Shown in pieces: positions 13,913-42,232 of a stretch of 57,784 nt of DNA (position 1 is the stretch's first letter; every line of letters starts with the position of its first letter). Source of the DNA: Candidatus Micrarchaeota archaeon (GTDB taxonomy: Archaea > Micrarchaeota > Micrarchaeia > Anstonellales > Anstonellaceae). The notes below the pieces were generated by a model, which was not told the DNA's origin, made no database searches, and worked only from the letters and a program-made list of their open reading frames with translations. The stretch lies in NCBI GenBank assembly GCA_018304295.1, contig JAGVWK010000046.1, forward strand, positions 1 to 57,784. Direction: 5' to 3'. Position numbers and translations under genes: made by a program.

Positions 13913-13916
13913 TAAT

Positions 13917-14474: not shown

Positions 14475-14505
14475 CTCTTCCAGTTCTGCGACTTTTATAA
14501 CAGCA

Positions 14506-14513
14506 TTTAAATA
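14506..14513 (+). promoter_or_regulatory. TATA box (tttaaata) 23-30 nt upstream of ATG 14536
   Basis: Matches the archaeal TTTAWATA consensus. The spacing implies a leaderless transcript. Confidence 0.5.
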
Positions 14514-14535
14514 CCCTTTCCATCACAATATTTCC

Positions 14536-17412: not shown

Positions 17413-17490
17413 GATGCTTGCAGCCCGCCCGAGCTTTGGCTTTTTAAAGAGTAGCCTCCAATACAGGATGTTTTTTACGAGGTGCTTTGA

Positions 17491-17715
17491 ATGGCTGAGA
17501 AAAGACCGTTTGACATACTGAACAATGCGCTCAACAACAACGTCGTTGTGGGGATAAAGGGCGGGCTTGAAGTGCGTGGCATGATGGTTTCCTACGACGT
17601 GCACATGAATATCGTGCTTGAAAAGGCTGAGCAGCTAAAGGACGGCGAGGTAAAGCGCGGCCTTGGAACAGTGCTTTTGCGCGGCGACTCGGTAGTGTAC
17701 ATTTCGCCCTCATAA
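17491..17715 (+). CDS. Sm-like archaeal protein (LSm/SmAP)
   Basis: Sm1/Sm2 motifs: VVVGIKGGLEVRGMMVSYDVHMNIVLEKAE...LGTVLLRGDSVVYIS. Confidence 0.9.
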   Translation: MAEKRPFDILNNALNNNVVVGIKGGLEVRGMMVSYDVHMNIVLEKAEQLKDGEVKRGLGTVLLRGDSVVYISPS

Positions 17716-17812
17716 AAGTCGCATTTGGGCAAAACACATTGCGTGCGGCTCGCCCCTTGCAAAAACGTGCATCTTTAAATTAATTCCCAAACCACCCAAA
17801 ACAGGTGGTTTT

Positions 17813-22216: not shown

Positions 22217-22979
22217 ATGAAAACCCACAAACGGGCAAAAAGTTGCAATAATAACCGGCTCGGACTGCGGAATAGGCGAAGGGATAGCAACGGCATTTGC
22301 CAACGCAGGCGCAAGCGTTACAATATGCTCCCCGCACATTGAAAAGTGCGAGGCAGCGTGCGCAAAGCTGCGCAAATTCGGGGCAAAAGCCCTTGCGCTC
22401 CAATGCGACGTTTCAAAGGAGGAGCAGGTGCAAAGCCTTATCTCAAAGACAGTAAAGGAATTCGGCAGGCTTGACATAATGGTGAATAACGCAGGCGTCC
22501 TCCTTCAAAAGCCCCTTGACGAGGTGGAGAAAAAAGACATTGACTGGCAGCTCGGCATCAACATAAACGGCGTGCTTTTCGGCACAAAATACGCGGCAAA
22601 GCAGATGAAAAAGCAAAAAGACGGCGGCTGCATAATAAATATCGCATCAATCGCAGCCTTGGTGGGCTACCCAATGCTAAGCACATACTGCGCCTCAAAG
22701 GGCGCAATCGCAGCCTTTACGCGCGCAGCGTCCGCAGAGCTTGCTCCCCATAAAATACGCGTAAATGCAATTTGCCCCGGGCTAATAGAGTCTGAGATGA
22801 CAAAGCCCATGCTGCAAGACGCAAAAATGCGCGATGAATTCTTAAAATCAATACCGCTTCGCATTGTAGGGCAGCCGTCAGACATCGGATACGGCGCGCT
22901 TTACCTTGCGTCTGAAGAGGCGCGCTATGTTAGCGGCATTTCCCTTGTAATAGACGGCGGAGAAATAGCAACGACCTAA
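22217..22979 (+). CDS. Short-chain dehydrogenase/reductase (SDR); the start codon is out of frame by 1 nt
   Basis: In-frame sequence from 22221 reads KPTNGQKVAIITGSDCGIGEGIA...NNAGV...YCASKGA. The only nearby ATG (22217) is +1 relative to this frame. Removing one A from the AAAA run at 22220-22223 gives MKPTNGQKVAIITG. The track ORF (22428, GTG) lacks the Rossmann N-terminus. Confidence 0.8.
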
Positions 22980-23776: not shown

Positions 23777-25351
23777 ATGGATGCGCAGCTTTATGCAACT
23801 CTAAACAAAGGCTGGAAATCCACGTGCAGGGTTCTTTTTGGCAAAGAGATAGGGGAGCTGGAAAAATACGAGGAGTGGCTGGGGGAATATCTCCCTCCTG
23901 TTGCAAAGCGAAGGTCGCACCTGAGCGGCAAGAAAGTGATAGTCGCCAAGGACTCATACCCTAAAAACGCGCGCTTCATCTCCGAGGACGAGCTCACAAC
24001 GAACAGAAGCTACACTCTTTCCATAAACGACATAAAAGACGTGGATTCCATAATGCGCGCACTTTGCGAAAAATGCGAATACACAGGCAACCGCTTCCTT
24101 GGCAATTCCGCTCACATGAGCGAGTCCGACATAGTGCTTGACTCTCAATACGTGCACAATAGCACGAACATTGAGCAGTCCACCTACATATACTCTTCCT
24201 ACATGATGCGCAGGGGCAGCAAATACTCATACGGAAGCGGCTGGACAGCAGCAGGGGAATTCACTGTGCGCTGCGTTGCAGGCATAAACCTGCGCCGCTG
24301 CCTAGAGTCCCATGCAGTGGCAGACTGCTCGGACACCTACTTCTCTTTTGACTGCCACGGCTGCACCGACATTCTATTCTCATTCGGGCAGCGCAGCAAA
24401 AACCACATGATAGGCAACCTGCCTCTTGCAAAGGAAAAATACGCGCAAATAAAAGCAAAGCTCCTTGGGGAAATTGCAGCAGAGCTTGAAAGTAAAAAAT
24501 GCTTCCCCCCACTTTTCGCCCTTGTCCCGAAAATGCCGCCAAAAAACCTCCCAAAAATAACCCCCTCCCTCCCAAAAGACGAAAAAAGCATGGCTGCAAT
24601 AGAAAAGGGCTTTTCCTCAACCTACGGCGTAATACTGAAAAGCAAGCCCTTCAGCATATGCGACTACGAGGAATGGCTTGAGAAAAACACAGTGCGGGTT
24701 GTGCCTGTGCAGTCCGCTTTTGGAAATACAACTTACCTTCCGCAGAATTTTCCTGTTTTCAGCCTGCTGCCAAAGCACCGCCTCATAAGCGTATTTGAGT
24801 CCATTGAGGCTGGCAAATCTCTCCATGTGCGCGAGCAGTCCCTTTCCAGCCTCCCTTCCCTCCTAAAGGAGCTTGGCAATATAGCTTTCTTTACCGCGGA
24901 ATTCTACAATGGCGAAAACCGCAACATAATAAGCGCGCCCCATGTGCTGCACAGCGCAAACGTGTACAAAGGCTATGAGGCAACGTATTCTGAGCATTCA
25001 GGCTGCACCTCGCTTTCGTTGCACTCCAAATACGTATATGGCTGCCACCGCATAATAGACTCCCAGTTTTCCCTCAAATGCTACAATTCCCTCTACCTTA
25101 ACCGCTGCCTTGAGCTTGACGGCTGCACAAAATGTGCGGACTCATATTTTTGCCACAACTGCGAAGGCATGTCCGATTCCATGTTCTGCTTCAATGCAAA
25201 GGGAAAGCGCTTCTCAATAGGCAACACGGATTTGCAGCGGGAGAAATATGCGCAGGTGAAAGAAATGCTGCTTTCGCAGATGGCGGGCGAGCTTGACAAA
25301 AACAAATCCCTCAAATGGGACATTTACAATATAGGTGCTAAAAATAGTTAA
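23777..25351 (+). CDS. Cys-rich two-module repeat protein, paralogue 1 (unknown family)
   Basis: 524 aa, with no signal peptide or TM segment. Shares WKSTCRVLFGKEIGEL, LSINDIKDVDS, CxxC...F(S)F...IGN...EKYAQ and the C-terminal CHNCEGMSDSMFCFNAKG...LKWDIYNIG with the four ORFs below. Confidence 0.85.
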   Translation: MDAQLYATLNKGWKSTCRVLFGKEIGELEKYEEWLGEYLPPVAKRRSHLSGKKVIVAKDSYPKNARFISEDELTTNRSYTLSINDIKDVDSIMRALCEKCEYTGNRFLGNSAHMSESDIVLDSQYVHNSTNIEQSTYIYSSYMMRRGSKYSYGSGWTAAGEFTVRCVAGINLRRCLESHAVADCSDTYFSFDCHGCTDILFSFGQRSKNHMIGNLPLAKEKYAQIKAKLLGEIAAELESKKCFPPLFALVPKMPPKNLPKITPSLPKDEKSMAAIEKGFSSTYGVILKSKPFSICDYEEWLEKNTVRVVPVQSAFGNTTYLPQNFPVFSLLPKHRLISVFESIEAGKSLHVREQSLSSLPSLLKELGNIAFFTAEFYNGENRNIISAPHVLHSANVYKGYEATYSEHSGCTSLSLHSKYVYGCHRIIDSQFSLKCYNSLYLNRCLELDGCTKCADSYFCHNCEGMSDSMFCFNAKGKRFSIGNTDLQREKYAQVKEMLLSQMAGELDKNKSLKWDIYNIGAKNS

Positions 25352-25352
25352 C

Positions 25353-25359
25353 TTTATAT
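25353..25359 (+). promoter_or_regulatory. TATA-like element in an AT-rich patch 25-31 nt upstream of ATG 25384
   Basis: tttatat lies within aactttatatgctttatttaactaatttttaact, which is unusually AT-rich for this window. Confidence 0.45.
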
Positions 25360-25383
25360 GCTTTATTTAACTAATTTTTAACT

Positions 25384-26259
25384 ATGTGGTTAAATTTTAG
25401 TAAAATTGAACTTGAAGTGCTGCACATGCTTTGCGAAGGGAGCGCAAGCGCCGGAGAGCTGGCGAAGAAGCTGCGAAAGAAGAACAGCTTTATTTCGCGC
25501 ACTTTGGGAAAGCTTAGGCAAAAAGGGATGGCAGTTAAGGGCAGGCAAGAAATCTCACTTTCCCAAGCGGCGCAAGCGCAGAGCTTTAAGCGGCTTTATG
25601 ATTCAAGGCCGGATGCAAAAATAGAAGCATGGTTTTGCAGCAGCGCAATGGATGTGCTTATAGTGCTTGCGGGTTTCAACGAAGGCTGCGAGCTTGGGGC
25701 GCTTGTTGCTGAAATAGGGTGCTCAAAACCTACCATGTTCAAAGTGCTAAAGCGATTCTATGCAGCAGGCGTTGCAACCAAAAGAGGCAGCAAGGCAATG
25801 ATAAGCGACAGATTGGTGAGAGAGTTTGCAGAAAATTACGCAAACGGGCTCCATCTTCTTTTGCTTTCGCAGGCGAAGGGGCATAACGGTTCAATACGAG
25901 TAAGGAAAAACGTAGTAGCGAGGACAGACGCAAAAGGGGTTCCGCACTATTTCTCACAGACGGGGCTTTCTGCACTCGCAAATATGGGATTGGAAGCAGT
26001 GCTGACTTCGTATAATGACTTTTATTTCAATCTCGATATGAGGGAAAGAAATGTGGGCGCAGAAGAGGCATTTGTGCATGCGCTTCTTCTGACAACGATG
26101 CAGCAACATCAGGACAAGACAGTGCTTGCAATTTTCCTTAATAAGAACATGAGGAAATTGAATATCGGGAAGATGCGGGAGCTTGCAAAGGAATACAATA
26201 TCCTAGGGGAGCTTGACACCATGCGCCAAGCTCTTGATTATGCACAGAAGGCAAGATGA
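25384..26259 (+). CDS. Double winged-helix (MarR/ArsR-like) DNA-binding protein
   Basis: Two wHTH-like segments: LEVLHMLCEGSASAGELAKKLRKKNSFISRTLGKLRQKGM and MDVLIVLAGFNEGCELGALVAEIGCSKPTMFKVLKRFYAAGV. Confidence 0.6.
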   Translation: MWLNFSKIELEVLHMLCEGSASAGELAKKLRKKNSFISRTLGKLRQKGMAVKGRQEISLSQAAQAQSFKRLYDSRPDAKIEAWFCSSAMDVLIVLAGFNEGCELGALVAEIGCSKPTMFKVLKRFYAAGVATKRGSKAMISDRLVREFAENYANGLHLLLLSQAKGHNGSIRVRKNVVARTDAKGVPHYFSQTGLSALANMGLEAVLTSYNDFYFNLDMRERNVGAEEAFVHALLLTTMQQHQDKTVLAIFLNKNMRKLNIGKMRELAKEYNILGELDTMRQALDYAQKAR

Positions 26260-26260
26260 T

Positions 26261-27016
26261 ATGGCAAAATTATTTGGCAAAGAGGATTTGCTGGATGTCT
26301 TTAGGAGAGTTGGGGCTGCGCTCGGAAAGGAAGCTTCCGTTTTCTTGCTGGGCGGCGGAGCGATGTGCTTTCGCAACCAGAAGCCCGGCACAAAGGACCT
26401 TGATTTGGTATTTTTGGATGGAAAGGATGCGGATGAGTTTTCCAAGTGCGCAGTTAAGATTGGGTTTTCAAGGCCAAAGAGCCTTGAGTTGGAATACAAG
26501 CTGATGGGCGCATGCAACATATTGGAGAATGCAAATGAATTTCGGCTTGATATTTTCTGCGAGACCGTATGCGGAGCGCTGAATTTAAGCAAAAGCATGG
26601 CAAAAAGAGCGGAACAATTTGGAAAATTTGGCAAGCTCACAGTGCTGCTTGTTTCAAATGAGGATGTAGTTCTCTTCAAAGCAATAACGCAGCGCCCAAG
26701 GGACGTGGAAGATATTGTCGCCGTTGTGCGCGGTGCGAACGTAAATTGGAACATAGTGCTCTCGGAATGCAAGGCACAGAGTTTGGAGCACAAATGGTAT
26801 GGGCTTGTTTACAACAAGCTTGTGGAAATTGAGGAGAAGCACGGGGTAAGCGCTCCAATAATGGACGCACTACTGAAGCTTGACAGGAAAACAATACTTG
26901 AAGAGGCTTATTCAAGCATGCGCGGCAAAGGCATGGGGAGCGGAAAGGCGCTTGCGGAACTTAAAAAAATGGGATTTACGGAAAAAGAATTGGGGCACTT
27001 GGAAAGAAAGAGCTAA
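26261..27016 (+). CDS. Minimal nucleotidyltransferase-fold protein (MNT/DUF6036-like)
   Basis: FLLGGGAMCFRNQKPGTKDLDLVF fits the G[GS]x(n)DxD polymerase-beta NTase motif. ATG 26261 follows the upstream stop by 1 nt. Confidence 0.6.
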   Translation: MAKLFGKEDLLDVFRRVGAALGKEASVFLLGGGAMCFRNQKPGTKDLDLVFLDGKDADEFSKCAVKIGFSRPKSLELEYKLMGACNILENANEFRLDIFCETVCGALNLSKSMAKRAEQFGKFGKLTVLLVSNEDVVLFKAITQRPRDVEDIVAVVRGANVNWNIVLSECKAQSLEHKWYGLVYNKLVEIEEKHGVSAPIMDALLKLDRKTILEEAYSSMRGKGMGSGKALAELKKMGFTEKELGHLERKS

Positions 27017-27036
27017 AGCAATATGGGTGTAACGGA

Positions 27037-28647
27037 ATGAAATCCAAAACTTACGACGCAGTGAACAAGGCTTGGAAGAGCACGTGCAAGGTGCTTTTTG
27101 GCACCGAGGTGGGAGAGCTTGAGGATTTTGAAAAATGGCTGAACTCCCACATGCCAACGCCCCAGCTTGAAACCTCCTCTTTCTCAGGCAAATCCGTGGC
27201 ACTCCCGTGCAGCGATTATGGCAGGCACGATTATGCCAAAGGCGCGCACTTTACAAGCTTTGACGAAATCAAGTTTGGCACTAAATTTAAGCCGCTTAAC
27301 ATAAACGAGGTAAAAGACATAGACATGATAATAGCCGCCCTTGGCGAGCGCCTTGCCTACTGCGGCAACATAGTGCTTGGCAATTCAGCATACGTAGAGA
27401 AAAGCGCGGACGTGATAAACTCCAGCTTTGTCCTGTCCTCCTCCCTTGTAGGGGACTCAAGGTACATATCCCACAGCATCTGGGTATATGAGAGCCAGTA
27501 CTGCTTTGGGAACTTTGGCGCATGGAAGAACATGCACTCCATAATGCTCAGTGGCGGGGAATATGTGCGCTGCTTTGAGTGCCATTCCGGGGAGGTAAAC
27601 TCGGATTGCTACTATTGCGGCAGCCCGAAAAACTGCTCCAATTGCATGTTCTCCTTTGGGATACAAAACAAGCGCAACATGATAGGCAACCTTGAGCTTC
27701 CAAAGGAAAAATACGCGCAAATAAAAGCCTCCCTTACCTCGCATATGGCAGATACGCTGCGCAAGGAAAAAAGGATTTTCTCGCTCTTTGACATATTGGA
27801 TGGCTGCCGGAAATACCCCCATGAAAAGCTGCAAATGCCTCAGGAAGAAAAACAAAAGCCATTTGACATAACGCCCATTGAAAAATCCTTTGGTGCAACC
27901 ACGGGAATACTTCTTGGAAAGCCGCTTTGCGGCATTGACTCCTATTCAAGGTTCCTGCAACGGCACGTGCCTTCAAACAAGCACATCGCATCCCCTTTCA
28001 GCGGCCAAAAAGTCGTGCTCGCAGGCTACCGTGCTTTTCTTTCAAGCCTTTACAACCTTGAGGGCAGGATGGTTACAGAAAGCGAGGTAAGGCAAATAGG
28101 GAAGCTTCCCTCCAAAATGGAAAAAATAAGCAAGATGCAGGCAACTATGGGCTCAGTGTGCGAAACGCTCCATGAAATAGCATACAGCGACCTTGACAAG
28201 CAGTATGGGAACAACACAAACAACTTTGACTGCTCCGTGGTGGTGAACGCGCACGACTGCTACAAGGGCTCTGCATATTCGCATTGCAAAAAATGCGCCT
28301 ACTCTTTTTGGCCATTTGGCTGCGAACAGGTGTTCGGCTCCTACAACTCTTGGAACTGCCAGTTTTGCATCAACTGCTACAACTCAAAGAAGCTTTCAAG
28401 GTGCTTTGAAACCGACTGCTCCTACGAATGCTCGGACGGATACTTCCTGCACAACTGCGAGAACGTGCGCGATTCCATGTTCTGCTTTAACACAAAGAAC
28501 CTGCACAACGCAATCGGGAACGCGCAGCTTGAGAAGGGAAAATATTCCGGCATCAAAGATGCGCTCGTATCCCAAATGCATGCGGAGCTTGAGAAGAAGA
28601 AAGGCTTAAAATGGGACATTTACAATATAGGTGCCGGTAAGGCCTAA
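27037..28647 (+). CDS. Cys-rich two-module repeat protein, paralogue 2
   Basis: 536 aa; same motif order as paralogue 1. Its stop overlaps the start of paralogue 3 (TAATG). Confidence 0.85.
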   Translation: MKSKTYDAVNKAWKSTCKVLFGTEVGELEDFEKWLNSHMPTPQLETSSFSGKSVALPCSDYGRHDYAKGAHFTSFDEIKFGTKFKPLNINEVKDIDMIIAALGERLAYCGNIVLGNSAYVEKSADVINSSFVLSSSLVGDSRYISHSIWVYESQYCFGNFGAWKNMHSIMLSGGEYVRCFECHSGEVNSDCYYCGSPKNCSNCMFSFGIQNKRNMIGNLELPKEKYAQIKASLTSHMADTLRKEKRIFSLFDILDGCRKYPHEKLQMPQEEKQKPFDITPIEKSFGATTGILLGKPLCGIDSYSRFLQRHVPSNKHIASPFSGQKVVLAGYRAFLSSLYNLEGRMVTESEVRQIGKLPSKMEKISKMQATMGSVCETLHEIAYSDLDKQYGNNTNNFDCSVVVNAHDCYKGSAYSHCKKCAYSFWPFGCEQVFGSYNSWNCQFCINCYNSKKLSRCFETDCSYECSDGYFLHNCENVRDSMFCFNTKNLHNAIGNAQLEKGKYSGIKDALVSQMHAELEKKKGLKWDIYNIGAGKA

Positions 28648-30215
28648 TGGATTTGCAGCAGTCTTTTGACACAACGGCAAAGGTCCTTTTCGGCCAGCCC
28701 ATAGGGAAACTTTCGGATTTCAGGGATTACCTTGGGGAAATGGTGCTTCCCTACCAGACAAAAAAATCCTTTCTTTCAGGCAAGCAAGTGATGGTTTCGC
28801 ACCGGTTTTACCCCAAGGATGCGAAATTCATTTCACAGGAGGAGATAGCGCAGCTAAAATTCCAGCCGCTCTCCATAAACGAGATAAAGGACATAGATTC
28901 GCTCCTTTGTGCAGTGTCAGAGCGCGCAATATACTGCGGCAACAAGCTGCTTGGGGAAAACACCCTTGTGCAGGGCGTTGACAATTGCGTGGATTGCAAT
29001 CATGTTGAGCATTCGCACAACGTTTTCAGCATAAAATACGGCGCATACCTTTCCTGCCTGCGCGAATGCGAGCACGTTTTCGGGGTTTTCGGCTTCCCCC
29101 GCTCCTCATTTTCCATGCGCTGTTTTGATGGGATAGGGACAACCCGCTGTTTTGAGTCCTATTACTCGCGGGAGCTTGCGGATACCTACTATGCATTCAA
29201 CTGCGTGGGCTGCTCGGATTGCATTTTCGCGTTCAATTTGCGCGGCAAACGGCACACAATAGGCAACCTTGAGCTTCCAAAAGACAGCTATCTTGAACTC
29301 AAGAAAAAGCTTGTTTTTGAAATGGGCGCACAGCTGAAGAAAAACAAGAGGCTATTTTCAGTAGTGGACATCGCATACGCAGGCCGCGACCGCAAAACAA
29401 TAAAGGAAGACGAGGTTCTTTTTGATTCGCCAGTGCCGCAAAAAGTTGAGGAGGCATTCAGGAAAACAACAAAGCTCGTGCTTGGGAAGGAGCTGCAGGG
29501 AATAAAGCAGTTTGAAGGCTGGCTGCAAAAATGCGCCCTCACGGTAAAGAAAATAAAAGGAGCGCTTGGCACTCCCACTTACAAGGTGGACGGCCTTCCA
29601 TTCGCATCGGATATCCCTGCTGACCGGCTGCTCACCCTTGGCGAAGCCCTTTCATTTTCCGAAAAAAACAAAATAAGCCTAAAAGCCGGAGAATCCCTGT
29701 CTTTGCATGAAACGCTTTTGCGCGTTGCAAAAATAGCGCGCTTCAGCCTTGAGTTCATTGACGGGTGCAGCGAGAACTGCGTGGACGTCCCAACAATATT
29801 CACGGGCTTTGACTCGTACAAAACATACGACATTACCCATTCCAAATATTCCGCATATGCCAGCGTCGCAGTGCACTCCGAATACATCTTCGGCGGGCAC
29901 CTGCGCATGCTTTACTCCCAGTTCTGCATAAACTGCTTTGATTCCACAAAGCTTAATTCCTGCTTTGAGGTTGATTGCTCATATTCGTGCAGAAATTGCC
30001 TATTCTGCCACAACTGCGAGAACCTCTCCGACTGCATGTTCTGCTTCAATGCAAAGAATTTGCGCTACGCGATAGGCAATGTGGAAGTTGGCAGGGAAGG
30101 GTACATGCGCATAAAAGGCATTCTCCTCGCGCACATCCAAAAGGAGCTTGAGGAAAAGAAAAGGCTGGGCTTGAACATCTTTAACTCTGGCGCAAAAAGC
30201 GCAGGAAGTGCCTGA
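28647..30215 (+). CDS. Cys-rich two-module repeat protein, paralogue 3
   Basis: 522 aa; same motif order as paralogue 1. Confidence 0.85.
   Translation: MDLQQSFDTTAKVLFGQPIGKLSDFRDYLGEMVLPYQTKKSFLSGKQVMVSHRFYPKDAKFISQEEIAQLKFQPLSINEIKDIDSLLCAVSERAIYCGNKLLGENTLVQGVDNCVDCNHVEHSHNVFSIKYGAYLSCLRECEHVFGVFGFPRSSFSMRCFDGIGTTRCFESYYSRELADTYYAFNCVGCSDCIFAFNLRGKRHTIGNLELPKDSYLELKKKLVFEMGAQLKKNKRLFSVVDIAYAGRDRKTIKEDEVLFDSPVPQKVEEAFRKTTKLVLGKELQGIKQFEGWLQKCALTVKKIKGALGTPTYKVDGLPFASDIPADRLLTLGEALSFSEKNKISLKAGESLSLHETLLRVAKIARFSLEFIDGCSENCVDVPTIFTGFDSYKTYDITHSKYSAYASVAVHSEYIFGGHLRMLYSQFCINCFDSTKLNSCFEVDCSYSCRNCLFCHNCENLSDCMFCFNAKNLRYAIGNVEVGREGYMRIKGILLAHIQKELEEKKRLGLNIFNSGAKSAGSA
30005..30154 (+). repeat. 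Near-identical nucleotide tracts shared with 32854..33003 (paralogue 3 vs paralogue 4, 3' ends)
   Basis: Hand alignment at a constant offset of 2849 nt. 30005-30088 differs from 32854-32937 at 3 positions, all synonymous. 30112-30154 is identical to 32961-33003. Confidence 0.85.
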
Positions 30216-30243
30216 ATGTTAAGAATAAGCGAAACTTATAGTA

Positions 30244-30251
30244 TTTTATAA
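30244..30251 (+). promoter_or_regulatory. TATA-like box (ttttataa) 21-28 nt upstream of ATG 30272
   Basis: It lies in the AT-rich 56-nt spacer between paralogue 3 and the AbiEii-like gene. Confidence 0.45.
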
Positions 30252-30271
30252 TTAACGTTCATTATATACCC

Positions 30272-30916
30272 ATGGACCTCCCGCTGCAAAACCGCCTCAA
30301 GAAACGGGCTCATGCCGAGCTTGCGAGCCTGCAGGACGAGGTAGTGGACATCCTCTACAATGTTGCCCCAAAAGCGGTTTTCCACGGCGGAACGTGCATC
30401 TGGCGTTGTTATGGGGGAAGCCGTTTTTCGGAGGATTTGGATTTCTACCTCGCGCTAGGCGCGTTTGATGCACAGAGCTTAAAGGCAGCGCTTCTTGCGC
30501 GCGGGCTTGCGCTTGACAAGTTCAAGCAGACGCAGAACTTAATGTACGCGAAAATCTCCTCGGGTGACGTGCAGGTTCGCCTTGAAATAAACCTTGCAGC
30601 AATGAAAAGCCCTGTTTCAAGGGCGTATGAAAAAACAGATGGGGCATTTATGGAAGTCCTTGCGCTAAGCGCAGAGGGACTTTTGGCTGAAAAATTCGCG
30701 GCATACGCAAACAGGAAGCTCGTGCGGGACATTTATGACGTGTTTTATCTCAGCAGGATTGCGCAGGCGGACAAGGAAACCGCCACACGCATAAGTGGCT
30801 TTTTGAAAAACCCCTTTGCGCCGGCTGACTACAAGAACCTGCGCGCAATCGTGTATGCCGGCACAGTTCCAACCTATGCACAGATGCTTGAAGCCTTGCG
30901 GGGGCGTTTCCCATGA
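30272..30916 (+). CDS. AbiEii/AbiGii-family nucleotidyltransferase (type IV TA toxin-like)
   Basis: FHGGTCIWRCYGGSRFSEDLDFY matches the family signature GGTAL...Y...R.S.D(I/L)DF. Confidence 0.75.
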   Translation: MDLPLQNRLKKRAHAELASLQDEVVDILYNVAPKAVFHGGTCIWRCYGGSRFSEDLDFYLALGAFDAQSLKAALLARGLALDKFKQTQNLMYAKISSGDVQVRLEINLAAMKSPVSRAYEKTDGAFMEVLALSAEGLLAEKFAAYANRKLVRDIYDVFYLSRIAQADKETATRISGFLKNPFAPADYKNLRAIVYAGTVPTYAQMLEALRGRFP

Positions 30917-31491
30917 AATATGCAAAGGAGTTCCGCGATAAATTTGCCAAGAGGCGCAGCTTCAGCGCGCGCGACGTCGCGCTTTATTTCAGGCAGAAAG
31001 GGCTTTCAGCGCAGTACAGGCGCGTGCTTTTGCACAACCTAGTGAAGAAAGGCGGGCTTAAGCGGATAAAACGGGGGGTTTACACGTTCTCCAATGATAT
31101 AAGCTGCGTGGGGTTTGCATATTCCCCATTTTACTACGGGCTGCAGGATGCGCTTTCAATGCACAACTTATGGGAGCAGGAGGCAAACCCCATAGTGATA
31201 ACGCCGCAAAAGGCAAGGCAGGGCATGCGCTCCTTTTTGGGGAACAACTACCTTGTGAGAAGGATAAGCCGCCGCATGTTCTTTGGCTTCTCGCACGTGC
31301 GCCACGGAGGGCAATTCGTGCCTGTTTCGGACGTTGAAAAAACGCTCATAGACTTCTTCTATTTCCGCGAGCCGCTTTCAAAAGATGCACTGGCGGAAAT
31401 AAAAGGGAAACTGGACAAAAAAGTGCTTGAGAAATACCTTAAAAAATGCCCAAAACGGCTGCGGGGAACAATAAGAAACGCGCTCAAGTGA
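30913..31491 (+). CDS. AbiEi-like antitoxin / transcriptional regulator (wHTH)
   Basis: FSARDVALYFRQKGLSAQYRRVLLHNLVKKGGLKRIKRGVYTF carries the typical N-terminal wHTH ending in RGVY. ATGA overlap with the NTase gene. Confidence 0.7.
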   Translation: MKYAKEFRDKFAKRRSFSARDVALYFRQKGLSAQYRRVLLHNLVKKGGLKRIKRGVYTFSNDISCVGFAYSPFYYGLQDALSMHNLWEQEANPIVITPQKARQGMRSFLGNNYLVRRISRRMFFGFSHVRHGGQFVPVSDVEKTLIDFFYFREPLSKDALAEIKGKLDKKVLEKYLKKCPKRLRGTIRNALK

Positions 31492-31495
31492 GCTT

Positions 31496-33052
31496 ATGGA
31501 CATAAATTCCGCATGGAAAAGCGCATGCAAGGTCCTGTTGGGAGAAGAAATAGGGGAAATTCAGCAATACGCAGGATATTTGCAGAAATACGTTGAGCCG
31601 CTTTCAGAAAAAACATCCGCGCTCTCAGGCAAAAAAGTGCTTGTTTCCTCTTCTGATTTTTGCAAAGGGGCGAAATTCATATGCAATGAGGAGCGAGAAG
31701 CGTATGCGAAAATGCTTGCACAGCACAAAATCGGAATAAACGACATGAAGGACATTGATTCCATGCTTGGCGCGCTTTCCGAGAGCCTGTATTACTGCGG
31801 CAACATTGTGCTTGGCAATTCCGCTTTTGTGCAAGAGTCTAACAGGTGCGTGAACGCATACTACTGCTTTCGCTGCGACGACGTATACGATAGCAAGTAC
31901 GTTGCATATTCGCGCGAAGCGCGCTACTGCGAATACGTGTTCGGTTCCAACCAGCCCGGCGAATCTAAGTTCAACATAAAGGGAATGGGTGTATGGAGGG
32001 CAGTGCGGTGCATGGAAGTGATGCGCGCAATGGCATGCTCGGACTGTTACTATAGCGCCAACATAGAGGACTGCTCGGACTGCATGTTTTCCTTTAACCT
32101 GAGAAGCAAGAGGCGCATGATAGGCAACAACTCTCTTTCAAAGGAGGAATACGAAAAACTAAAGGCAAAGCTCATTTGGGACATGTGCGAAACGCTCTCG
32201 CGCAAAAAAGTGCTTCCCTGCATAGCCGACATAATCGCAGGAGGGCAGTTGGCAGGCACGGAGAAGTCCCAGCAGCTCCCACCCTCAGAGCCAAGCGAAG
32301 AAATAGAAAAGGCATTCGGGCAAACCTCAAGGGTGCTTTTTGGAAAGCCGCTTTCCAACATGCGCGCTTACGGGAAATGGCTGCAGCAGCACGTCCCAAA
32401 ATACGAGAAAGTGCGTTCCGCAATAAGCGCCCAGCCAGTGTGCATACCAGCGTGGGTTTTCTACAAGCCCGCACGCGCAAAATGCGTAACAATAGAGGAA
32501 TCCCTCGAGCTTGGGAAGAAATGCGTCCTTGCAAGCAGGCTTGAAAAGCTTGGTGTTTCCAGCGCCGCAGCACTCCTCAAGGAAATAAGCTTCATTGCCC
32601 CTGACATACGCGTGAGCAACAACTTCAACATAACCGACGTTGCAACATGCGGCTACACTTCGGATTGTGCCTACTGCTCAGTATGCGCGTTCAGCAAACA
32701 CTGCGCATACTCCTACTGGCCGCGCCAGTCTGAGCACATATTCGGCTCCTCGCTTGCGTTTTCCTCCCAGTTCTGCCTAAAATGCTATCACTCCTCCAGC
32801 CTGAGCCGCTGCTTTGAGGTATCTGATTCCTACTCCTGCTCCGATTGCTATTTCTGCCACAACTGCGAGAACCTCTCTGACTGCATGTTCTGCTTCAACG
32901 CGAAGAATTTGCGCTACGCGATAGGCAATGTGGAAGTGGGAAGAGAGGAGTTCCTGCGCGTAAAAGGCATTCTCCTCGCGCACATCCAAAAGGAGCTTGA
33001 GGAGAAGAAAAAACTAGAACTGGGCATATTCAACATTGGTGAAAAAAAATGA
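31496..33052 (+). CDS. Cys-rich two-module repeat protein, paralogue 4
   Basis: 518 aa; same motif order. ATGA overlap with paralogue 5. Confidence 0.85.
   Translation: MDINSAWKSACKVLLGEEIGEIQQYAGYLQKYVEPLSEKTSALSGKKVLVSSSDFCKGAKFICNEEREAYAKMLAQHKIGINDMKDIDSMLGALSESLYYCGNIVLGNSAFVQESNRCVNAYYCFRCDDVYDSKYVAYSREARYCEYVFGSNQPGESKFNIKGMGVWRAVRCMEVMRAMACSDCYYSANIEDCSDCMFSFNLRSKRRMIGNNSLSKEEYEKLKAKLIWDMCETLSRKKVLPCIADIIAGGQLAGTEKSQQLPPSEPSEEIEKAFGQTSRVLFGKPLSNMRAYGKWLQQHVPKYEKVRSAISAQPVCIPAWVFYKPARAKCVTIEESLELGKKCVLASRLEKLGVSSAAALLKEISFIAPDIRVSNNFNITDVATCGYTSDCAYCSVCAFSKHCAYSYWPRQSEHIFGSSLAFSSQFCLKCYHSSSLSRCFEVSDSYSCSDCYFCHNCENLSDCMFCFNAKNLRYAIGNVEVGREEFLRVKGILLAHIQKELEEKKKLELGIFNIGEKK
32854..33003 (+). 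repeat. Partner of the 30005..30154 near-identical tracts
   Basis: See 30005..30154. Confidence 0.85.
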
Positions 33053-34626
33053 AAGGCGAAATTTACGAAATGCTCAACAAGCAATGGAAAAGCGCGTGCA
33101 AAGTGATCCTTATGCAGGAAATCGGGGAGCTTAAAGAATACGAAGGCTGGCTGCGCGAAAGCCTTGAGCCGCTTTCAATTGAAAAATCAGGCATTTCGGG
33201 AAAGAAAATTCTTGCTGTAGGGAATTATCCAAAAGGCATAAAATTCATAAGTTTTGACGAGGTTGACCAAGGAAAGAAATTCCAGCCATTAAGCATAAAC
33301 GACATCAAGGATATTGACGGCATCGCGGATGCGGTGCGCGAGCGGGCTTCTTATTGCGGCAACATCGTGCTTGGCAATTCCTCACAAATAGAGCATAGCA
33401 CAGGAATAGAAGACAGCCATTTTATGCTTGGCTCGCACACATTCCACAAATCCGAGTATATCGCACATTGCACGCTTGGAAGGGAAACGAGCCATGCGTT
33501 TGGCTCTTCCTTCATCGGAGAGTCAAGCTTTCTGATAAAATCCGACAACATATGGCGGACAGCCCGCTGCTTCTGCTCTTCGTGGGTATACGAATCTTCG
33601 GATGCGCATTACTCACACGGGCTAAACGGCTGTTTTGACTGCATGTTTTGCTTTGGGTTAAGGGGGGCTAAAAATTGCGTAGGAAATGTGCAGCTTGAAA
33701 AGGGCAAGTATGCCGAGCTTAAAACAAAGCTTCTTGTGGAAATAACAGCAGAGCTAAAGAAGAGGAAAAGATTGGCATTTGTTACTGAAATTGTGCCAAA
33801 GAAAAAAACCACTCTGCAGTTTCGCCCTACACCCGAAAAAGCCAAAGAAAGCGATTTTGGCGCAATTGAAGCCGCATTCTCAAAAGCCTGCGAACTCATC
33901 TTTGGCAGGAGCATAGGAAGCATCCTGCCACTTGAAAAATACCTTTTAAGGAACGTGCGCGGCTCAAGCGCGCATTCCTCCGCACTTAGCGGAACGCCTG
34001 TTTTTGCAGGAAGCATGCAGCTTGATTTGGAGCGCGTGAAAACAGGCAGGCTTGCAACATTTTACGAGCTTTTGGGAATGTCAAAAATAAGGGAATCCCC
34101 AGAAGGCGTTAAGATGGAAAATATCCGGCTTTCAAACATCCAGAATCTCATTGAGCCCATAGCATATTTTTCAACAGAGGAGGAAACGCAAAGCAAAAAC
34201 ATAATAGAATGCCCGACTGCCAACTGCGCATCCGATTGCTTCAGGTGCAACCGCACATACTATGTAAAATATTGCGCGCTTTCTTTCTGGCCACGCAATT
34301 CGGAACACATGTTTGGATGCGATTCAACAAGGAATTCCTCCTTTTGCATAAAATGCCATAACTCATACAAACTGGGCAGGTGCTTTGAGGCGGACACTTC
34401 CCAAAATTGCACGGGCTGCTATTTCATACACAACTGCGAGAACGTGCACGATTCCATGTTCTGCTTCAACGTGAAGAACCTCAGGTATGCGATTGGAAAC
34501 GCGGAAGTTGGGCGGGAGAAATTCATGCAGGCAAAAGAAGCGCTGCAAAAATATATCATTGAAAGGCTTGAGCGCAGCAATGCGCTTGAGCTTGACATCT
34601 TCAACATTGGGCACTGCAAAAACTAG
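33049..34626 (+). CDS. Cys-rich two-module repeat protein, paralogue 5
   Basis: 525 aa; same motif order. Confidence 0.85.
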   Translation: MKGEIYEMLNKQWKSACKVILMQEIGELKEYEGWLRESLEPLSIEKSGISGKKILAVGNYPKGIKFISFDEVDQGKKFQPLSINDIKDIDGIADAVRERASYCGNIVLGNSSQIEHSTGIEDSHFMLGSHTFHKSEYIAHCTLGRETSHAFGSSFIGESSFLIKSDNIWRTARCFCSSWVYESSDAHYSHGLNGCFDCMFCFGLRGAKNCVGNVQLEKGKYAELKTKLLVEITAELKKRKRLAFVTEIVPKKKTTLQFRPTPEKAKESDFGAIEAAFSKACELIFGRSIGSILPLEKYLLRNVRGSSAHSSALSGTPVFAGSMQLDLERVKTGRLATFYELLGMSKIRESPEGVKMENIRLSNIQNLIEPIAYFSTEEETQSKNIIECPTANCASDCFRCNRTYYVKYCALSFWPRNSEHMFGCDSTRNSSFCIKCHNSYKLGRCFEADTSQNCTGCYFIHNCENVHDSMFCFNVKNLRYAIGNAEVGREKFMQAKEALQKYIIERLERSNALELDIFNIGHCKN

Positions 34627-37106
34627 GCTTTCTTTCCCTTCTTGGAGCTTGGCAGCTTTTTCTTTGCCGCTCTTTTCGCCTTTGCAGCCGCAGGCTCTTT
34701 TGCGCGCGAAGATGAGGCAGGCTTTTTCTTTATGCGCTCTATCTGCTCAAGCAGGGAGCCCTGCTCTGGTTTTTCCTCTCCTTCAGCCTCTTCATCCTCA
34801 GCCGCCGCCCCGTCCTCCTTATCATCGCTTGACATGAGCTCGCTTTCCCCCGGCAACTTTTCTTGCTGCTCTTCGCTCTCATTCTCAAAGGGCTTTTCCT
34901 CCTCTTGCTGCTTTTTATTTTCCCCAGTGTCCTTTTTCCATTCCCATGCAAATCCCGCAGCCTTTTGTTTTTCTTCTCCTTCCTCCCCCTCAGCCTTTTC
35001 CCGCGCACCATCCTCATTTTCTTCCTGCGCATCAGAGGAAGCATTTTCCACCCCATCGCCTGCCCCTTCCTCCACGTGCGCTTTTTTAGCGCGCCTTTTC
35101 CCCTTTGCAGGCTCCTCTTCCTCCCCCTCAAGCTTTCTTAAGTCCTCTTCAATTTTGAAGTCCATCCAGCTGGGTTTTTCCTTTTCTTCCTCCAAATGCC
35201 GCCCTTGCGCCCCTGCGCCCTTTTCCTGCATTTGGGAATGCCCTTCCTCCTCTTGCATCACGGCATTTGTCTCTTCCAAGCTTTCCCCGCGCCCGCTTGA
35301 ATTTTCTTCCTGAGCAGCTTCCGTGAAAGGCTTTTCCCCATGCCCCTTTACCCTGTCCCTCTCAGCCGCAATTTTGGCGTATTTCTCAGCCATCTGCTGC
35401 GACGTTACGCTGCTTTCGGAATAGCCCCAGCGCGCAACGTCCACGACCTTGAGCTTCATGGGCAAAATGTATTTTTTCCCATCATAAAGGCGCACCATGC
35501 ATTCGCGCTGGTGCAATCTCACGAACATTTCCTTCTTTGACTCTTCTATCTCGGTCTGGCTTCTTGCCTTCTTGAAATACTCCTCCACCTTTATCTCCAT
35601 TATGGAGCTTATCATCGTCGCATCCTGCCTATTGAGCTTGAACGCAATTATGTTGCGTATGTTGGATATTATGCTGTCGTGCACCTCTTTTGTGAGTTGC
35701 CCCAAATACTGCATTGAAATGTACGCATAGAGGTTGAACTTGCGCGTTTCCGCAAGTATGTCCTTTACAACGCGCGTTTCCACCCTCTGGAACTCGTCCA
35801 TCACAAGTATTGTGGGCTTTCCAAGCTTCTCCGTAATCGCAAGTATGTACATCTGGTTTATTATCGCGCCGGCCAAAAAGTTTATCATCCGTTTCCCAAA
35901 GAAATTCGGGTTAAAGGATATTACCGTAACGCGGTTTTTCTGTATTAAATCGTACAAATTCTCCCGCTTTTTGTCCCCTCCCAAATAAAGCTCGTATTCC
36001 CCGACAAAATTCAGTATGGGCAGCACCGCATCATTGAAATGGTGTATGTAAATGTCATTGAACTCCTCGTCAAAGAAGCGCTTTACCTCGTCGTTGTTTG
36101 TTTCCGACACAAATTCCGCCCTTTTGGATGAGTCCGTAAGAAGCAAGCTCACGTTGCGCAAATCCATCTTGTCTATTGCGGAAAGAAGGTGCACCGCATA
36201 AAAGAGCACCCTTTCGGAATATTTGTTCTCCTGCCCTATTGTGGAAGAGAGAAGCTGCGCTATAAGCTGCGTCATAAGCGGGGTTTTCACCCCTCCCACG
36301 TCCAATGGCTCAATGTAGTTGTCTATCAGATTCACTACTTTTTCATTCGGAAATACCTTGAGGAACTCCCCGTGCGGGTCAACTATCACAAAGCGCACAT
36401 CATCTTTCTGCTTTGCCTCTATTGCGCGTATGAGCGCAAAAAGCGCCTTGCTCTTGCCGGTTCCCGAGGCTCCCACTATGAGCGTGTGCTGGAAAAAGTC
36501 AAAGTTGTCCACACCCAAGGTCATTCCCGTCTCTTCAAACACCGGGAATTGCGAGGAAAGCGACATCCTCTTGGGTATGGGCTCAAGAACCTCAACATAC
36601 ACGGAAGGGTTTTTTTCCATGTCCACTATCATGAAGCGCTCCGGGGTCGTGCTTATTATTATGCATTTGCGCCCTGCCTCATCCACGGCAGTTCCAAATC
36701 CCCAGTATTTTCCCAGCACCTTTATCACGCGCAAATTAACGTCTTCCATGCTTTCCTTGAGCGCAAAGGACAAAAAATCCTGGCTGCCCATGAGCATGTA
36801 AAATTTTGGCGGGAAAATGGAGCCTTTTTTGCGCACCACTTCCAATGGCTCGGAAAGCTTGTAAGGGAAAACAAGCATGGAAATGCCGTCCATGCCCCTC
36901 CGGTCGCGTATGAAAAAGTGCACTGTATTTAGCTTGCGCTGTATGAATATGTTAAGGGGGTTGATGGAGAAAATATCGGAAAAATCAATAAAGCCAAACA
37001 ACGGAAGGCGCGTTTTTGTGAGCTGGTTGAAGAAATTCAGCACATCCTCGGCCTTTATGTTCACCGTGTAAAGGAGAACCTCCCGCACGCTATTTTTGCC
37101 TCCCAT
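34623..37106 (-). CDS. FtsK/HerA/VirD4-VirB4-superfamily P-loop ATPase with a ~270-aa acidic/lysine-rich C-terminal tail
   Basis: Walker A is HTLIVGASGTGKSKAL and Walker B is TILVMDEFQRV. It is followed by RKFNLYAYISMQYLGQL, reminiscent of the xQSxxQL motif of T4SS coupling proteins. No TM segment. Confidence 0.8.
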   Translation of the reverse strand: MGGKNSVREVLLYTVNIKAEDVLNFFNQLTKTRLPLFGFIDFSDIFSINPLNIFIQRKLNTVHFFIRDRRGMDGISMLVFPYKLSEPLEVVRKKGSIFPPKFYMLMGSQDFLSFALKESMEDVNLRVIKVLGKYWGFGTAVDEAGRKCIIISTTPERFMIVDMEKNPSVYVEVLEPIPKRMSLSSQFPVFEETGMTLGVDNFDFFQHTLIVGASGTGKSKALFALIRAIEAKQKDDVRFVIVDPHGEFLKVFPNEKVVNLIDNYIEPLDVGGVKTPLMTQLIAQLLSSTIGQENKYSERVLFYAVHLLSAIDKMDLRNVSLLLTDSSKRAEFVSETNNDEVKRFFDEEFNDIYIHHFNDAVLPILNFVGEYELYLGGDKKRENLYDLIQKNRVTVISFNPNFFGKRMINFLAGAIINQMYILAITEKLGKPTILVMDEFQRVETRVVKDILAETRKFNLYAYISMQYLGQLTKEVHDSIISNIRNIIAFKLNRQDATMISSIMEIKVEEYFKKARSQTEIEESKKEMFVRLHQRECMVRLYDGKKYILPMKLKVVDVARWGYSESSVTSQQMAEKYAKIAAERDRVKGHGEKPFTEAAQEENSSGRGESLEETNAVMQEEEGHSQMQEKGAGAQGRHLEEEKEKPSWMDFKIEEDLRKLEGEEEEPAKGKRRAKKAHVEEGAGDGVENASSDAQEENEDGAREKAEGEEGEEKQKAAGFAWEWKKDTGENKKQQEEEKPFENESEEQQEKLPGESELMSSDDKEDGAAAEDEEAEGEEKPEQGSLLEQIERIKKKPASSSRAKEPAAAKAKRAAKKKLPSSKKGKKA

Positions 37107-41749: not shown

Positions 41750-42118
41750 TCACTTGCGGCCCTTGCTCTTCACAATCTTCACTTTCGTCGGGGTAAGGAG
41801 TATCTTGTCGTTGTCTATGCGCGCAATGTCGCCGTTTATTTTAGTTATGTGCGCCTTTATGTTGTCAATTATCTGCTTGAGCTTGTTTGTCTGCCTCTGC
41901 ATTGGCGACACATTGAGCAAAATGATGTTTTTCGCCTTTAGCTCGTCAAAAATGACGTGCACGTCAGCCTCGCTTTCAAGGGCTACTGGCTTAATGTAAA
42001 AGTCAGCAGCCTGATGCAGCACATCCACATTCTCCATTTCAACGGAGTTCATGTATTCCTCAATGTTCATTTCCTTTCCAAGCCCGAGTCCCTTGGTAAC
42101 TTTTTCAAAGATGCCCAT
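41750..42118 (-). CDS. sepF: Cell division protein SepF (DUF552)
   Basis: Size and the pattern FYIKPVALESEADVHVIFDELKAKNIILLNVSPM...INGDIARIDNDKILLTP. Confidence 0.75.
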   Translation of the reverse strand: MGIFEKVTKGLGLGKEMNIEEYMNSVEMENVDVLHQAADFYIKPVALESEADVHVIFDELKAKNIILLNVSPMQRQTNKLKQIIDNIKAHITKINGDIARIDNDKILLTPTKVKIVKSKGRK

Positions 42119-42232
42119 TCTCTCACCTCAAATGGAGAAGTGTTTAACCTGATTTCTCATATACTACGTATGTATTAATAAGGCTTTTCTCGCATCTCTT
42201 TTCCTCTGCCAAATTTACGCGAGGCTGCTTTT

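Follow-up and report, generated by a model that had tools for sequence, protein, structure and literature searches.

The five-gene array and its neighborhood

The window, that is, the whole stretch of 57,784 nucleotides that was analyzed (contig JAGVWK010000046.1 of a Candidatus Micrarchaeota archaeon), contains five co-directional ORFs of 518–536 amino acids, named here W1 to W5. Two nucleotidyltransferase pairs lie between them, and an ATPase gene follows on the opposite strand:

23777..25351, + strand: W1 paralog, 524 aa (ORF); conserved class that most arrays contain, generally in first place
25384..27016, + strand: inserted pair between family genes, wHTH (25384–26259) and DUF6036 nucleotidyltransferase (26213–27016) (Pfam)
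27037..28647, + strand: W2 paralog, 536 aa (ORF, alignment); faster-evolving class
28647..30215, + strand: W3 paralog, 522 aa (ORF, alignment); coupled translationally to W2 via TAATG
30272..31491, + strand: inserted type IV toxin–antitoxin pair, AbiEii (30272–30916) and AbiEi (30913–31491) (Pfam, PADLOC)
31496..33052, + strand: W4 paralog, 518 aa (ORF, alignment); ortholog absent from the array of the closest genome
33049..34626, + strand: W5 paralog, 525 aa (ORF); overlaps W4 (ATGA)
34623..37106, − strand: soluble ATPase of the FtsK/HerA superfamily, 827 aa (Pfam DUF87/TrwB_AAD_bind)

All five ORFs of the original prediction are present on the + strand at the coordinates given there, and the motif order that it described is visible in the alignment of the five paralogs, in which W2–W5 align end to end with W1 at 35%–36% identity. 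The junctions (TAATG at 28645–28649, ATGA at 30913–30916 and 33049–33052) and the 13-nt gap between the PcrB stop and the W1 start are as described. The same holds for the neighbors (PcrB/GGGPS, a MarR-type wHTH with the DUF6036 nucleotidyltransferase, AbiEii with AbiEi) and the bordering genes (a DUF87/TrwB-type ATPase, a PIN-ATPase-KH protein, and a MazF toxin). The 3′ ends of W5 and of the ATPase gene overlap by 4 nt. The five proteins are predicted to be cytoplasmic, as proposed before, since TM helices are absent (top 19-residue Kyte–Doolittle mean ≤ 1.31). They are mildly basic (pI 8.2–8.5) and each contains 19–32 Cys, W1 being Cys-poor and W4 having 32.

The two nucleotidyltransferase/wHTH pairs had been read as part of the array pattern, but elsewhere they are rare: AbiEii/AbiEi was found at none of the 76 other loci, and the DUF6036 nucleotidyltransferase at three in total, locus L077 being the sole one that has it within an array. 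Both pairs are sporadic insertions, not conserved parts of the system. The AbiEii and AbiEi genes form a genuine AbiE type IV toxin–antitoxin pair inside the array, yet the absence of co-occurrence with the family elsewhere points to an insertion, not a component. In A. stagnisolia, the closest genome, the syntenic array lacks both pairs and has AsnC-type regulators in their place; this comes near to what the original prediction had named as its own refutation, an array conserved in synteny without the pairs. In other arrays the gaps are filled by HTH_10 or double-AsnC regulators. The HTH_10 gene stands beside family genes in 26 loci (co-directional, ∼55 nt upstream) and the double-AsnC HTH gene in 29 (mostly divergent, ∼100 nt upstream). 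The flanking genes, GAPDH, GGGPS, PINA (PRK13764, 3e-216), SepF, Orc1/Cdc6, and FtsY, are housekeeping genes and do not fit the "defense island" suggested earlier; a defense role becomes less likely. Across the loci, no membrane-protein neighbor recurs, and neither do pilus or channel genes.

Distribution and architecture of the family

The five proteins and the family profile gave zero matches in Pfam, NCBIfam, PADLOC, and the PDB sequences, and 72 members scanned singly against Pfam showed no recurrent match. With the confident AlphaFold model, Foldseek returned nothing better than E ∼ 1 from PDB and BFVD. These profile-library and fold searches, proposed together with the original prediction, agree with its view that the proteins cannot be assigned to a characterized family. 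Full-text literature searches did not find a description of the family either. Because it comprises 341 cluster representatives at E < 1e-30, the family is far beyond chance. The hmmsearch matches number 1,716. From the sequence data, it appears to be undescribed, large, and confined to Micrarchaeota, the restriction being judged by record titles, a few of which carry the label "Candidatus ainarchaeum," a name without NCBI taxonomy entry. Among GTDB species representatives, it occurs in 424 stretches, of which the best 80 were examined, and the system is found across several orders of the phylum. Micrarchaeota are tiny DPANN archaea with genomes of ∼1 Mb. Up to ∼15 kb of such a genome is given to the family, and the ATPase is kept at 52%–91% identity across orders, so that the family ranks with the most conspicuous phylum-specific unknowns of any DPANN lineage.

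Across the phylum, the number of genes per array varies between 1 and at least 9. The W1 class accounts for 78 of the 119 top homologs and comes first in the array in 25/37 cases; W1 orthologs are 45%–84% identical across Micrarchaeota. W2–W5 have their own orthologs each, 45%–61% identical (45%–50% for W2 elsewhere, 48% for the best outside match of W4). The classes are therefore old, and the "locally expanded paralogue set" of the original prediction does not hold. Rates differ between the copies. W1 is 83% identical to its A. stagnisolia ortholog, with housekeeping genes at 65%–90% and the ATPase at 88%, while the counterparts of W2 and W3 reach 55% and 65%, respectively, the latter with an in-frame TGA. 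By this comparison, W1 evolves at a housekeeping rate and the other copies faster, with turnover between close genomes.

Each paralog is built from a ∼255-aa module duplicated in tandem: the two modules per protein already noticed are borne out by the alignment of the N half with the C half (hhalign E = 2.4e-59). In the AlphaFold model of W1 (pLDDT 84.7, pTM 0.87), a module consists of a helical head, a short-period β-solenoid-like repeat, and a long C-terminal helix, with moderate confidence (pLDDT 58–76) in the Cys-rich part. The repeat region is periodic at lags 12, 6, 24, and 18, and a conserved DI(F/Y)NIG motif occupies the extreme C terminus. In other loci, the N and C modules are often separate adjacent genes, the N-only gene being directly followed by a C-only gene in 55/59 cases (median overlap 8 nt). 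The model and the gene structures suggest that family proteins are fused pseudo-dimers, or N + C heterodimers where the two halves are encoded separately. As a pseudo-dimer that occurs naturally both fused and split, the family offers a clean example of gene fusion/fission.

The strands of the repeat region are short and recur every 6 residues or a multiple of 6, as in left-handed β-helix proteins (γ-carbonic anhydrase, LpxA/LpxD), and proteins of this type are the only Foldseek matches of the family, all non-significant (E ∼ 1–10, TM ∼ 0.1). Periodicity at 6, 12, and 18 residues is present; none of the 72 members scanned has a Hexapep Pfam match, and the left-handed β-helix proteins have no counterpart of the Cys/Ser nonapeptide block, the helical head, or the terminal helix. 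The Cys-rich repeat of W2–W5 gives weak matches to phrog_15341 (of unknown function). Despite these, a viral origin was rejected, since neither tblastn against 50,697 phage genomes nor a scan of IMG/VR turned up any relatives. The analogy with a fused or split jelly-roll capsid and its packaging ATPase was also discarded, as the model lacks a jelly-roll fold and the arrays do not look viral.

The CxxC pairs had been taken to suggest Zn or Fe-S binding, but they are not conserved. A complete CxxC is missing from the C-module block in 41/246 homologs (17%) and from the N-module block in 66/246 (27%). The ladder Cys are wholly absent from 14 proteins, Cys being freely exchanged for Ser or Ala. 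Only C471 is a Cys in 88%–100% of sequences. With no invariant set of ligand Cys across the family, membership among the Cys4 zinc-ribbon or Fe-S proteins was rejected. There are about four well-conserved C-module Cys per class (435/444/453/471 in the W1 class, 432/453/462/471 in the others), and such class-specific sets are possible metal ligands. Polar residues are conserved at 87%–99%, above most Cys positions; H460, N461, E463, E446, R174, and D186 are conserved. The spacing of H460, N473, and N483 is compatible with an HNH-like nuclease; nevertheless, the profile of residues 425–524 retrieved no HNH chain from the PDB at E ≤ 10, none of the 72 members scanned singly has an HNH Pfam match, and this candidate was dropped. 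Neither a DNA-binding nor a nuclease domain could be detected in the family. DNA mimicry in the style of pentapeptide-repeat proteins was ruled out because the proteins are basic (pI above).

The linked HerA/FtsK-type ATPase

The ATPase contains a β-rich N-domain and a P-loop core, followed from around residue 610 by a tail of low complexity that is charged. The Walker A motif is GASGTGKSK, and the invariant D437–E438 lie in a hydrophobic strand, TILVMDEF (Walker B). In Pfam, DUF87, TrwB_AAD_bind, and FtsK_SpoIIIE match at residues 195–269. With Foldseek, the closest folds are DndH-C (9.7e-13), HerA 4d2i (1.5e-11), and TrwB (4e-11), with probability 1.00. Both the P-loop core and the overall modeled fold thus place the protein in the FtsK–HerA superfamily, as predicted. 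It has no TM helix. Its homologs are 52%–91% identical, and all named ones are from Micrarchaeota.

The original prediction was right about the HerA/VirD4-like type but treated the gene as a mere border gene, while it is the conserved partner of the family. The ATPase is present in 39/77 loci selected by the family; in the reciprocal test, a family gene adjoins the ATPase in 28 of the 30 ATPase-selected metagenome loci that are informative (with sequence on both sides of the ATPase). Adjacency is kept in four gene arrangements: convergent, with 3′ ends within ∼25 nt (the most frequent); family gene then ATPase; ATPase then family gene, overlapping; and operon. In Ca. Gugararchaeum, the N-module, C-module, and ATPase genes form a tight operon. 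One 1.37-Mb contig has two ATPase paralogs, each with its own family gene beside it (L115, L138). From these gene orders and identities, the ATPase appears to be a dedicated and vertically inherited linked gene of the family.

Three groups of known systems can be compared. HerA–NurA is the archaeal DNA end-resection complex. There, likewise, a HerA-fold ATPase stands beside a partner that is dimeric on the ring, as the pseudo-dimer or N + C heterodimer is predicted to be here, and both S. solfataricus HerA and T. kodakarensis HerA–NurA can be aligned with the ATPase model. The differences are that the family resembles NurA neither in sequence nor in fold, no neighbor has a NurA domain, the partner gene is multi-copy, and Mre11/Rad50 genes are not adjacent; the NCBIfam helicase_HerA model gives 21 bits against a cutoff of 970 (ATPase ortholog of locus L003). 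The HerA defense systems (SIR2-HerA/Nezha, DUF4297-HerA, DndFGH, MADS mad8) are similar in that a lineage-specific effector accompanies a HerA/FtsK-fold motor. Among the structural matches DndH-C ranks first, and the ATPase has a partial PADLOC mad8 match (5e-15, residues 206–508), other PADLOC HerA matches being limited to the P-loop. However, the five paralogs have 0 matches in PADLOC-DB v2, and the system here looks vertical and phylum-wide, amid core genes. TrwB/VirD4 and CedB/CedD belong to the same superfamily as the ATPase, with TrwB among its top structural matches and CedD its best NCBIfam label (30–40 bits, cutoff 600). TrwB and CedD are membrane-anchored, and Ced DNA import uses a TM-anchored HerA/VirB4-like ATPase with CedA-type membrane partners (PMC11868833). 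The ATPase studied here lacks such an anchor, and no pilus, channel, or membrane gene is recurrent beside it; a Ced DNA-import system was rejected on these grounds and on the low CedD score (30 bits vs. 600).

Possible roles of the family

In HerA–NurA and SIR2-HerA, the gene next to that of the ATPase encodes a partner that binds to the ring and works on the DNA being translocated. On this analogy, we favor, with moderate confidence, the reading that the family proteins are interchangeable partners of the ATPase motor, that is, pseudo-dimeric subunits serving as partners or effectors in a lineage-specific DNA-translocase machine. The putative hexameric ATPase ring would be capped or adapted by a family protein, or by an N + C heterodimer if the gene is split. 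The polar cluster of the C-module (R443, E446, D448, D455, H460, N461, E463, N473, N483) would be the functional site. The W1 class could act as the constitutive partner, and the extra copies, faster-evolving and individually regulated, could be alternative partners that alter the specificity or the conditions of use. What we infer in this scheme is that the proteins interact physically, that DNA is the substrate, and that the polar cluster has this role. In the commonest arrangement, which is convergent, the family gene and the ATPase are not co-transcribed, a point against partnership. Some copies may work on their own or in trans, as about 17 informative loci have family genes without a nearby ATPase.

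A more specific version is offered only tentatively. The whole would be a Micrarchaeota-specific machine, with no counterpart outside the phylum, in which a HerA-type DNA translocase owes its activity or target to interchangeable pseudo-dimeric caps, each under its own regulation and with a new β-solenoid fold, and which could serve as a new immune system or in DNA handling or acquisition for DPANN symbiosis. Such a result would add a HerA-partner machine (repair or defense) or reveal a new DNA-handling mechanism in reduced symbiotic archaea. The family has no sequence or structure relatives, yet its function is directly testable because it is anchored to a well-understood motor type.

A HerA-based defense against viruses or mobile elements, with the ATPase as motor or sensor and the diversifying paralogs as effectors or specificity modules, not acting through the Abi or toxin–antitoxin genes, seems unlikely to us, although several observations agree with it: DndH and SIR2-HerA are among the structural relatives of the ATPase, mad8 is matched, W2–W5 outpace housekeeping genes with turnover between close genomes, copy number varies, and toxin–antitoxin modules landed in this array and in L077. 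On the other side, no family member matches a PADLOC model, viral contigs and phage genomes lack the family, its spread over several orders is not patchy, and the ATPase and W1 keep a housekeeping rate and a conserved synteny among core genes, with housekeeping neighbors. Type VII secretion combines Esx/PE-PPE heterodimer pairs with EccC, a membrane-embedded FtsK/SpoIIIE ATPase, and channel components. By analogy, the paired N/C modules, presumed to lack signal peptides, could be cargo that the FtsK-like ATPase exports or hands over to the host cell, in the service of the symbiotic DPANN lifestyle. Heterodimer-type gene pairs in multi-copy arrays, proteins without TM helix, the C-terminal DI(F/Y)NIG, weak NCBIfam EccC matches at the P-loop, and the fast evolution of the non-W1 copies would suit cargo, but the ATPase is soluble, its closest folds are DNA translocases, and the cargo would be a folded ∼60-kDa pseudo-dimer. 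With conserved membrane neighbors also absent, a type VII-like secretion substrate was rejected, and delivery of this general kind is very improbable.

We hold it equally doubtful that the proteins are stand-alone Zn/Fe-S metalloproteins or enzymes and the ATPase adjacency merely inherited gene order. The Cys richness, the class-specific sets of about four C-module Cys, weak and non-significant similarity to zinc-ribbon and ZZ-finger proteins, and the label "zinc ribbon domain-containing protein" given to one member by one database source speak for it, and AsnC-type regulators would fit a metabolic role; the frequent loss of complete CxxC pairs and of the ladder Cys speaks against it, and inertia alone hardly explains an adjacency kept through four different rearrangements. 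Polymer-forming β-solenoid proteins, structural elements of a bactofilin-like scaffold or cytoskeleton that the ATPase remodels, would account for the periodic repeat and for the weak Foldseek matches, nearly all to β-helix proteins, and many paralogs with split subunits suit a hetero-oligomeric assembly. This is nonetheless hardly probable: bactofilin and other filament formers are not matched significantly, individually regulated copies are unusual for such a role, and the strong conservation of the polar residues is more suggestive of an active or binding site.

The array and its protein family

The five paralogous genes of the array (W1 to W5) are as follows.

Genes of the array
23777–25351, +, W1, ORF of 524 aa
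27037–28647, +, W2, ORF of 536 aa
28647–30215, +, W3, ORF of 522 aa
31496–33052, +, W4, ORF of 518 aa
33049–34626, +, W5, ORF of 525 aa

As read in the original prediction, the co-directional ORFs share one motif order, every motif of which is present in the W1–W5 alignment, and W2–W5 have 35–36% identity to W1 across the full-length alignment. The junctions are exact (TAATG at 28645–28649, ATGA at 30913–30916 and 33049–33052), the ATG of W1 lies 13 nt after the stop of PcrB (GGGP synthase), TM helices are absent, and the pI values are 8.2–8.5. The neighbors had been named correctly too: PcrB upstream, a MarR-type wHTH with a DUF6036 nucleotidyltransferase, an AbiEii/AbiEi pair, a DUF87/TrwB-type ATPase (34623–37106, −), a PIN-ATPase-KH protein, and a MazF toxin.

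The N half (residues 4–243) aligns to the C half (270–512) with an hhalign E-value of 2.4e-59; each protein is thus a tandem duplication of a module of ~255 aa, in agreement with the two-module claim. In many genomes, a paralogue is split into an N-module gene (~255 aa) followed by an adjacent C-module gene (~255 aa). The C-only gene comes directly after the N-only gene in 55 of 59 cases, the two overlapping by a median of 8 nt. This favors a heterodimer of the two modules, with the fused protein as a pseudo-dimer.

W1–W5, singly or as a profile, have no match in Pfam, NCBIfam, PADLOC, or PDB sequences, and 72 diverse members scanned individually against Pfam gave no recurrent match. In PHROGs, there is nothing beyond a weak match to a phage family of unknown function, phrog_15341 (E 7e-7 to 9e-3), on the Cys-rich repeat (W2 397–500, W4 115–206, W5 381–478, W3 427–469).

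The confident AlphaFold2 model of W1 (72 homologues as input; mean pLDDT 84.7, pTM 0.87) contains, per module, a helical head, a series of short β-strands, and a long terminal helix. The β regions are periodic (profile autocorrelation maxima at lags 12, 6, 24, and 18, with none in the heads), and a five-fold nonapeptide repeat, x-C-x-x-C-[FY]-[ND]-x-x, closes each of them. Foldseek found nothing significant for the model in PDB and BFVD; the weak matches (E 1–10) are nearly all to left-handed β-helix proteins. The module is therefore predicted to have a solenoid-like fold without recognizable relative.

In the 72-sequence alignment, C471 is the sole invariant Cys; other Cys positions are 30–90% Cys, with replacements chiefly by Ser or Ala. 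Among 246 full-length homologues, a complete CxxC pair is missing from the C-module block in 41 and from the N-module block in 66, and 14 lack Cys at all five ladder positions. The polar residues are much better conserved than Cys positions other than C471: R174 (99%), H460 (98%), E446 (97%), and D186, N461, and E463 (95%) in the same 246, with N473 invariant and N483 almost so in the 72. The Zn or Fe-S site suggested for the CxxC pairs is therefore not shared family-wide. Class-specific sets of ~4 conserved Cys do exist, and metal binding through them is possible in some paralogues. An HNH-like reading of H460...N473...N483 plus helix found no support: a profile of residues 425–524 finds no HNH protein.

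The adjoining ATPase

The ATPase gene (827 aa), which adjoins W5, had been described as bordering the array; it is instead the one constant neighbor of the family. It is present in 39 of 77 non-redundant loci selected by the family, tail-to-tail within ~25 nt in about 29 of them. Reciprocally, the ATPase was used to pick loci in an independent metagenome collection: a family gene lies within 2.5 kb in 42/58, and is adjacent in 28 of the 30 flanked on each side by 400 bp or more of sequence. The adjacency persists through four arrangements (F, family gene): convergent; F→ATPase; ATPase→F, the genes overlapping; and N-module→C-module→ATPase, a tight co-directional unit in Ca. Gugararchaeum, which belongs to another taxonomic order. 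The genome-sized contig Ga0209514_10000001 (1.37 Mb) carries two divergent ATPase paralogues ~80 kb apart (loci L115 and L138), each with its own family gene(s), one fused and one a split N+C pair.

The ATPase is soluble, with the Walker A motif GASGTGKSK, and is 52–91% identical across the phylum. It reaches no curated family cutoff, its sequence matches to known families being confined to the P-loop surroundings. Its AlphaFold model (pLDDT 78.8) matches DndH-C (1e-12), S. solfataricus HerA (1.5e-11), and TrwB (4e-11), and also SIR2-HerA and HerA-NurA. All of these matches belong to the FtsK-HerA superfamily, and those among them that are characterized are DNA translocases. Residues ~610–827 (window 35247–34623, −) are a long, highly charged stretch of low complexity in which E, K, G, and A abound; this tail differs widely in length among homologues (total length ~580 to ~990 aa). 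In one divergent locus (L083), the ATPase and a family array are separated by a protein of 1075 aa (12109–15336, +) that has a weak radical-SAM match and was seen in no other locus.

Distribution and evolution

An exhaustive profile search gave 1,716 cluster representatives at E≤1e-3, 341 of them at E≤1e-30, and 424 stretches of GTDB species representatives encode the family. The titles of the 75 loci returned for the best 80 of these 424 are Micrarchaeota or Micrarchaeia, except for a small number of generic "archaeon" records and of records labeled "Candidatus ainarchaeum." No relatives were found in IMG/VR viral contigs or phage genomes. The W1 class has orthologues at 45–84% identity, and W2–W5 each have their own at 45–61%; the classes are therefore old, and the local expansion first proposed is not a recent one. 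The 84% is reached in Ca. Anstonella stagnisolia (Micrarchaeota, DPANN), to which the source of the window is related.

Identity between the window and A. stagnisolia
Housekeeping genes (GAPDH, PcrB, SDR, epimerase): 65–90%
W1: 83%
ATPase: 88%
W2: 55%
W3: 65%, counterpart with in-frame TGA
W4, W5: no orthologue in the A. stagnisolia array

A W1-class gene heads the array in 25/37 cases and is the sole copy in minimal loci. Together with the contrast in rates, this position indicates that the system combines a single conserved copy with further copies that evolve faster and turn over. The TGA in the W3 orthologue (L001, the A. stagnisolia locus, 18934–18936) coincides exactly with a Cys/Ser ladder position (CFEVD*SYSS, corresponding to C450), and the frame stays intact for 75 codons beyond it. 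A nonsense mutation of TGC/TGT or a sequencing error could account for it; recoding is much less likely.

The syntenic order in A. stagnisolia is GAPDH, epimerase, SDR, PcrB, five family genes, ATPase, with AsnC-type regulators where the window has its nucleotidyltransferase pairs. These pairs had been taken as part of the array pattern, which does not hold: AbiEii/AbiEi recurs in no other locus, and the DUF6036 protein occurs in three loci in all, within an array only in L077. The recurrent neighbors are an HTH_10 protein (~240 aa; 26 loci, co-directional, ~55 nt upstream) and a double-AsnC HTH protein (~330 aa; 29 loci, mostly divergent, ~100 nt upstream of a family gene).

Possible roles and chromosomal context

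In HerA-NurA and SIR2-HerA, the gene of the partner lies next to that of the motor and its product docks on the ring, and the NurA dimer is paralleled by the pseudo-dimeric architecture of the family. On the best-supported reading, to which we lean slightly, the family proteins would serve the HerA-like translocase as its dedicated partners. By analogy, they would dock on the ATPase ring, with DNA as the presumed substrate and their function presumably residing in the conserved polar cluster of the C-module; W1 would serve constitutively, and the regulated extra copies as alternatives.

The locus had been interpreted as a defense island. Its flanks are housekeeping (FtsY, ThiF, GAPDH, GGGPS, PINA, SepF, Orc1/Cdc6), so that it is core chromosome with three TA-type insertions rather than such an island. 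A HerA-based defense system, the faster-evolving copies being diversifying effectors, is a minority option for us. Autonomous metalloproteins, for which the class-specific Cys sets could speak and the common loss of CxxC pairs speaks against, are improbable, as is exported cargo resembling type VII substrates; a structural polymer, which a solenoid-like fold might suggest, is the most remote of these.

A HerA/FtsK-type motor with a lineage-specific partner is a known type of system, and a truly new machine is doubtful. The novelty lies in the partner family and its fold, in the coexistence of fused with split forms, and in the multi-copy regulated arrays. No description of the family was found in Pfam (2025), NCBIfam (2026), PADLOC, or PDB, nor in full-text literature searches, Micrarchaeota genomics papers included.

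The "PIN-KH ATPase" (37159–38763, +) matches PRK13764 (3e-216) and PINA (2.4e-136; 455 bits, model cutoff 800 bits), PINA being a Holliday-junction branch-migration ATPase. It is an archaeal housekeeping protein and not a gene of a defense or nuclease island. SepF (−) and Orc1/Cdc6 (+) are divergently adjacent at 41750–43483, ~5 kb from the ATPase, which may place a replication origin nearby; the arrangement was not seen in more distant loci. A double-AsnC regulator of the same cluster as the recurrent one lies at 56495–57460 (+), near the window end and 22 kb away from the array; no family gene was detected next to it. The SDR gene (22221–22979, +) is longer than the ORF list suggests: its frame is open 5′ of the first canonical start (22428), encodes there the Rossmann motif TGSDCGIGEG, and aligns to residues 7–252 of the A. 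stagnisolia protein. Large ORFs at 10496–19609 (+) and 50885–54949 (+) (270, 546, 987, 598, and 1354 aa) have no Pfam match. At 12964–14474 (+) lie three small ORFs of 169, 159, and 185 aa, whose hydrophobic N-terminal segments (for example, ...KGQYFSFDALMSALILVLAV) resemble archaeal class III (prepilin-like) signal peptides; in 6–9 of the other loci analyzed, similar small ORFs occur at a distance of a few kb from the arrays.
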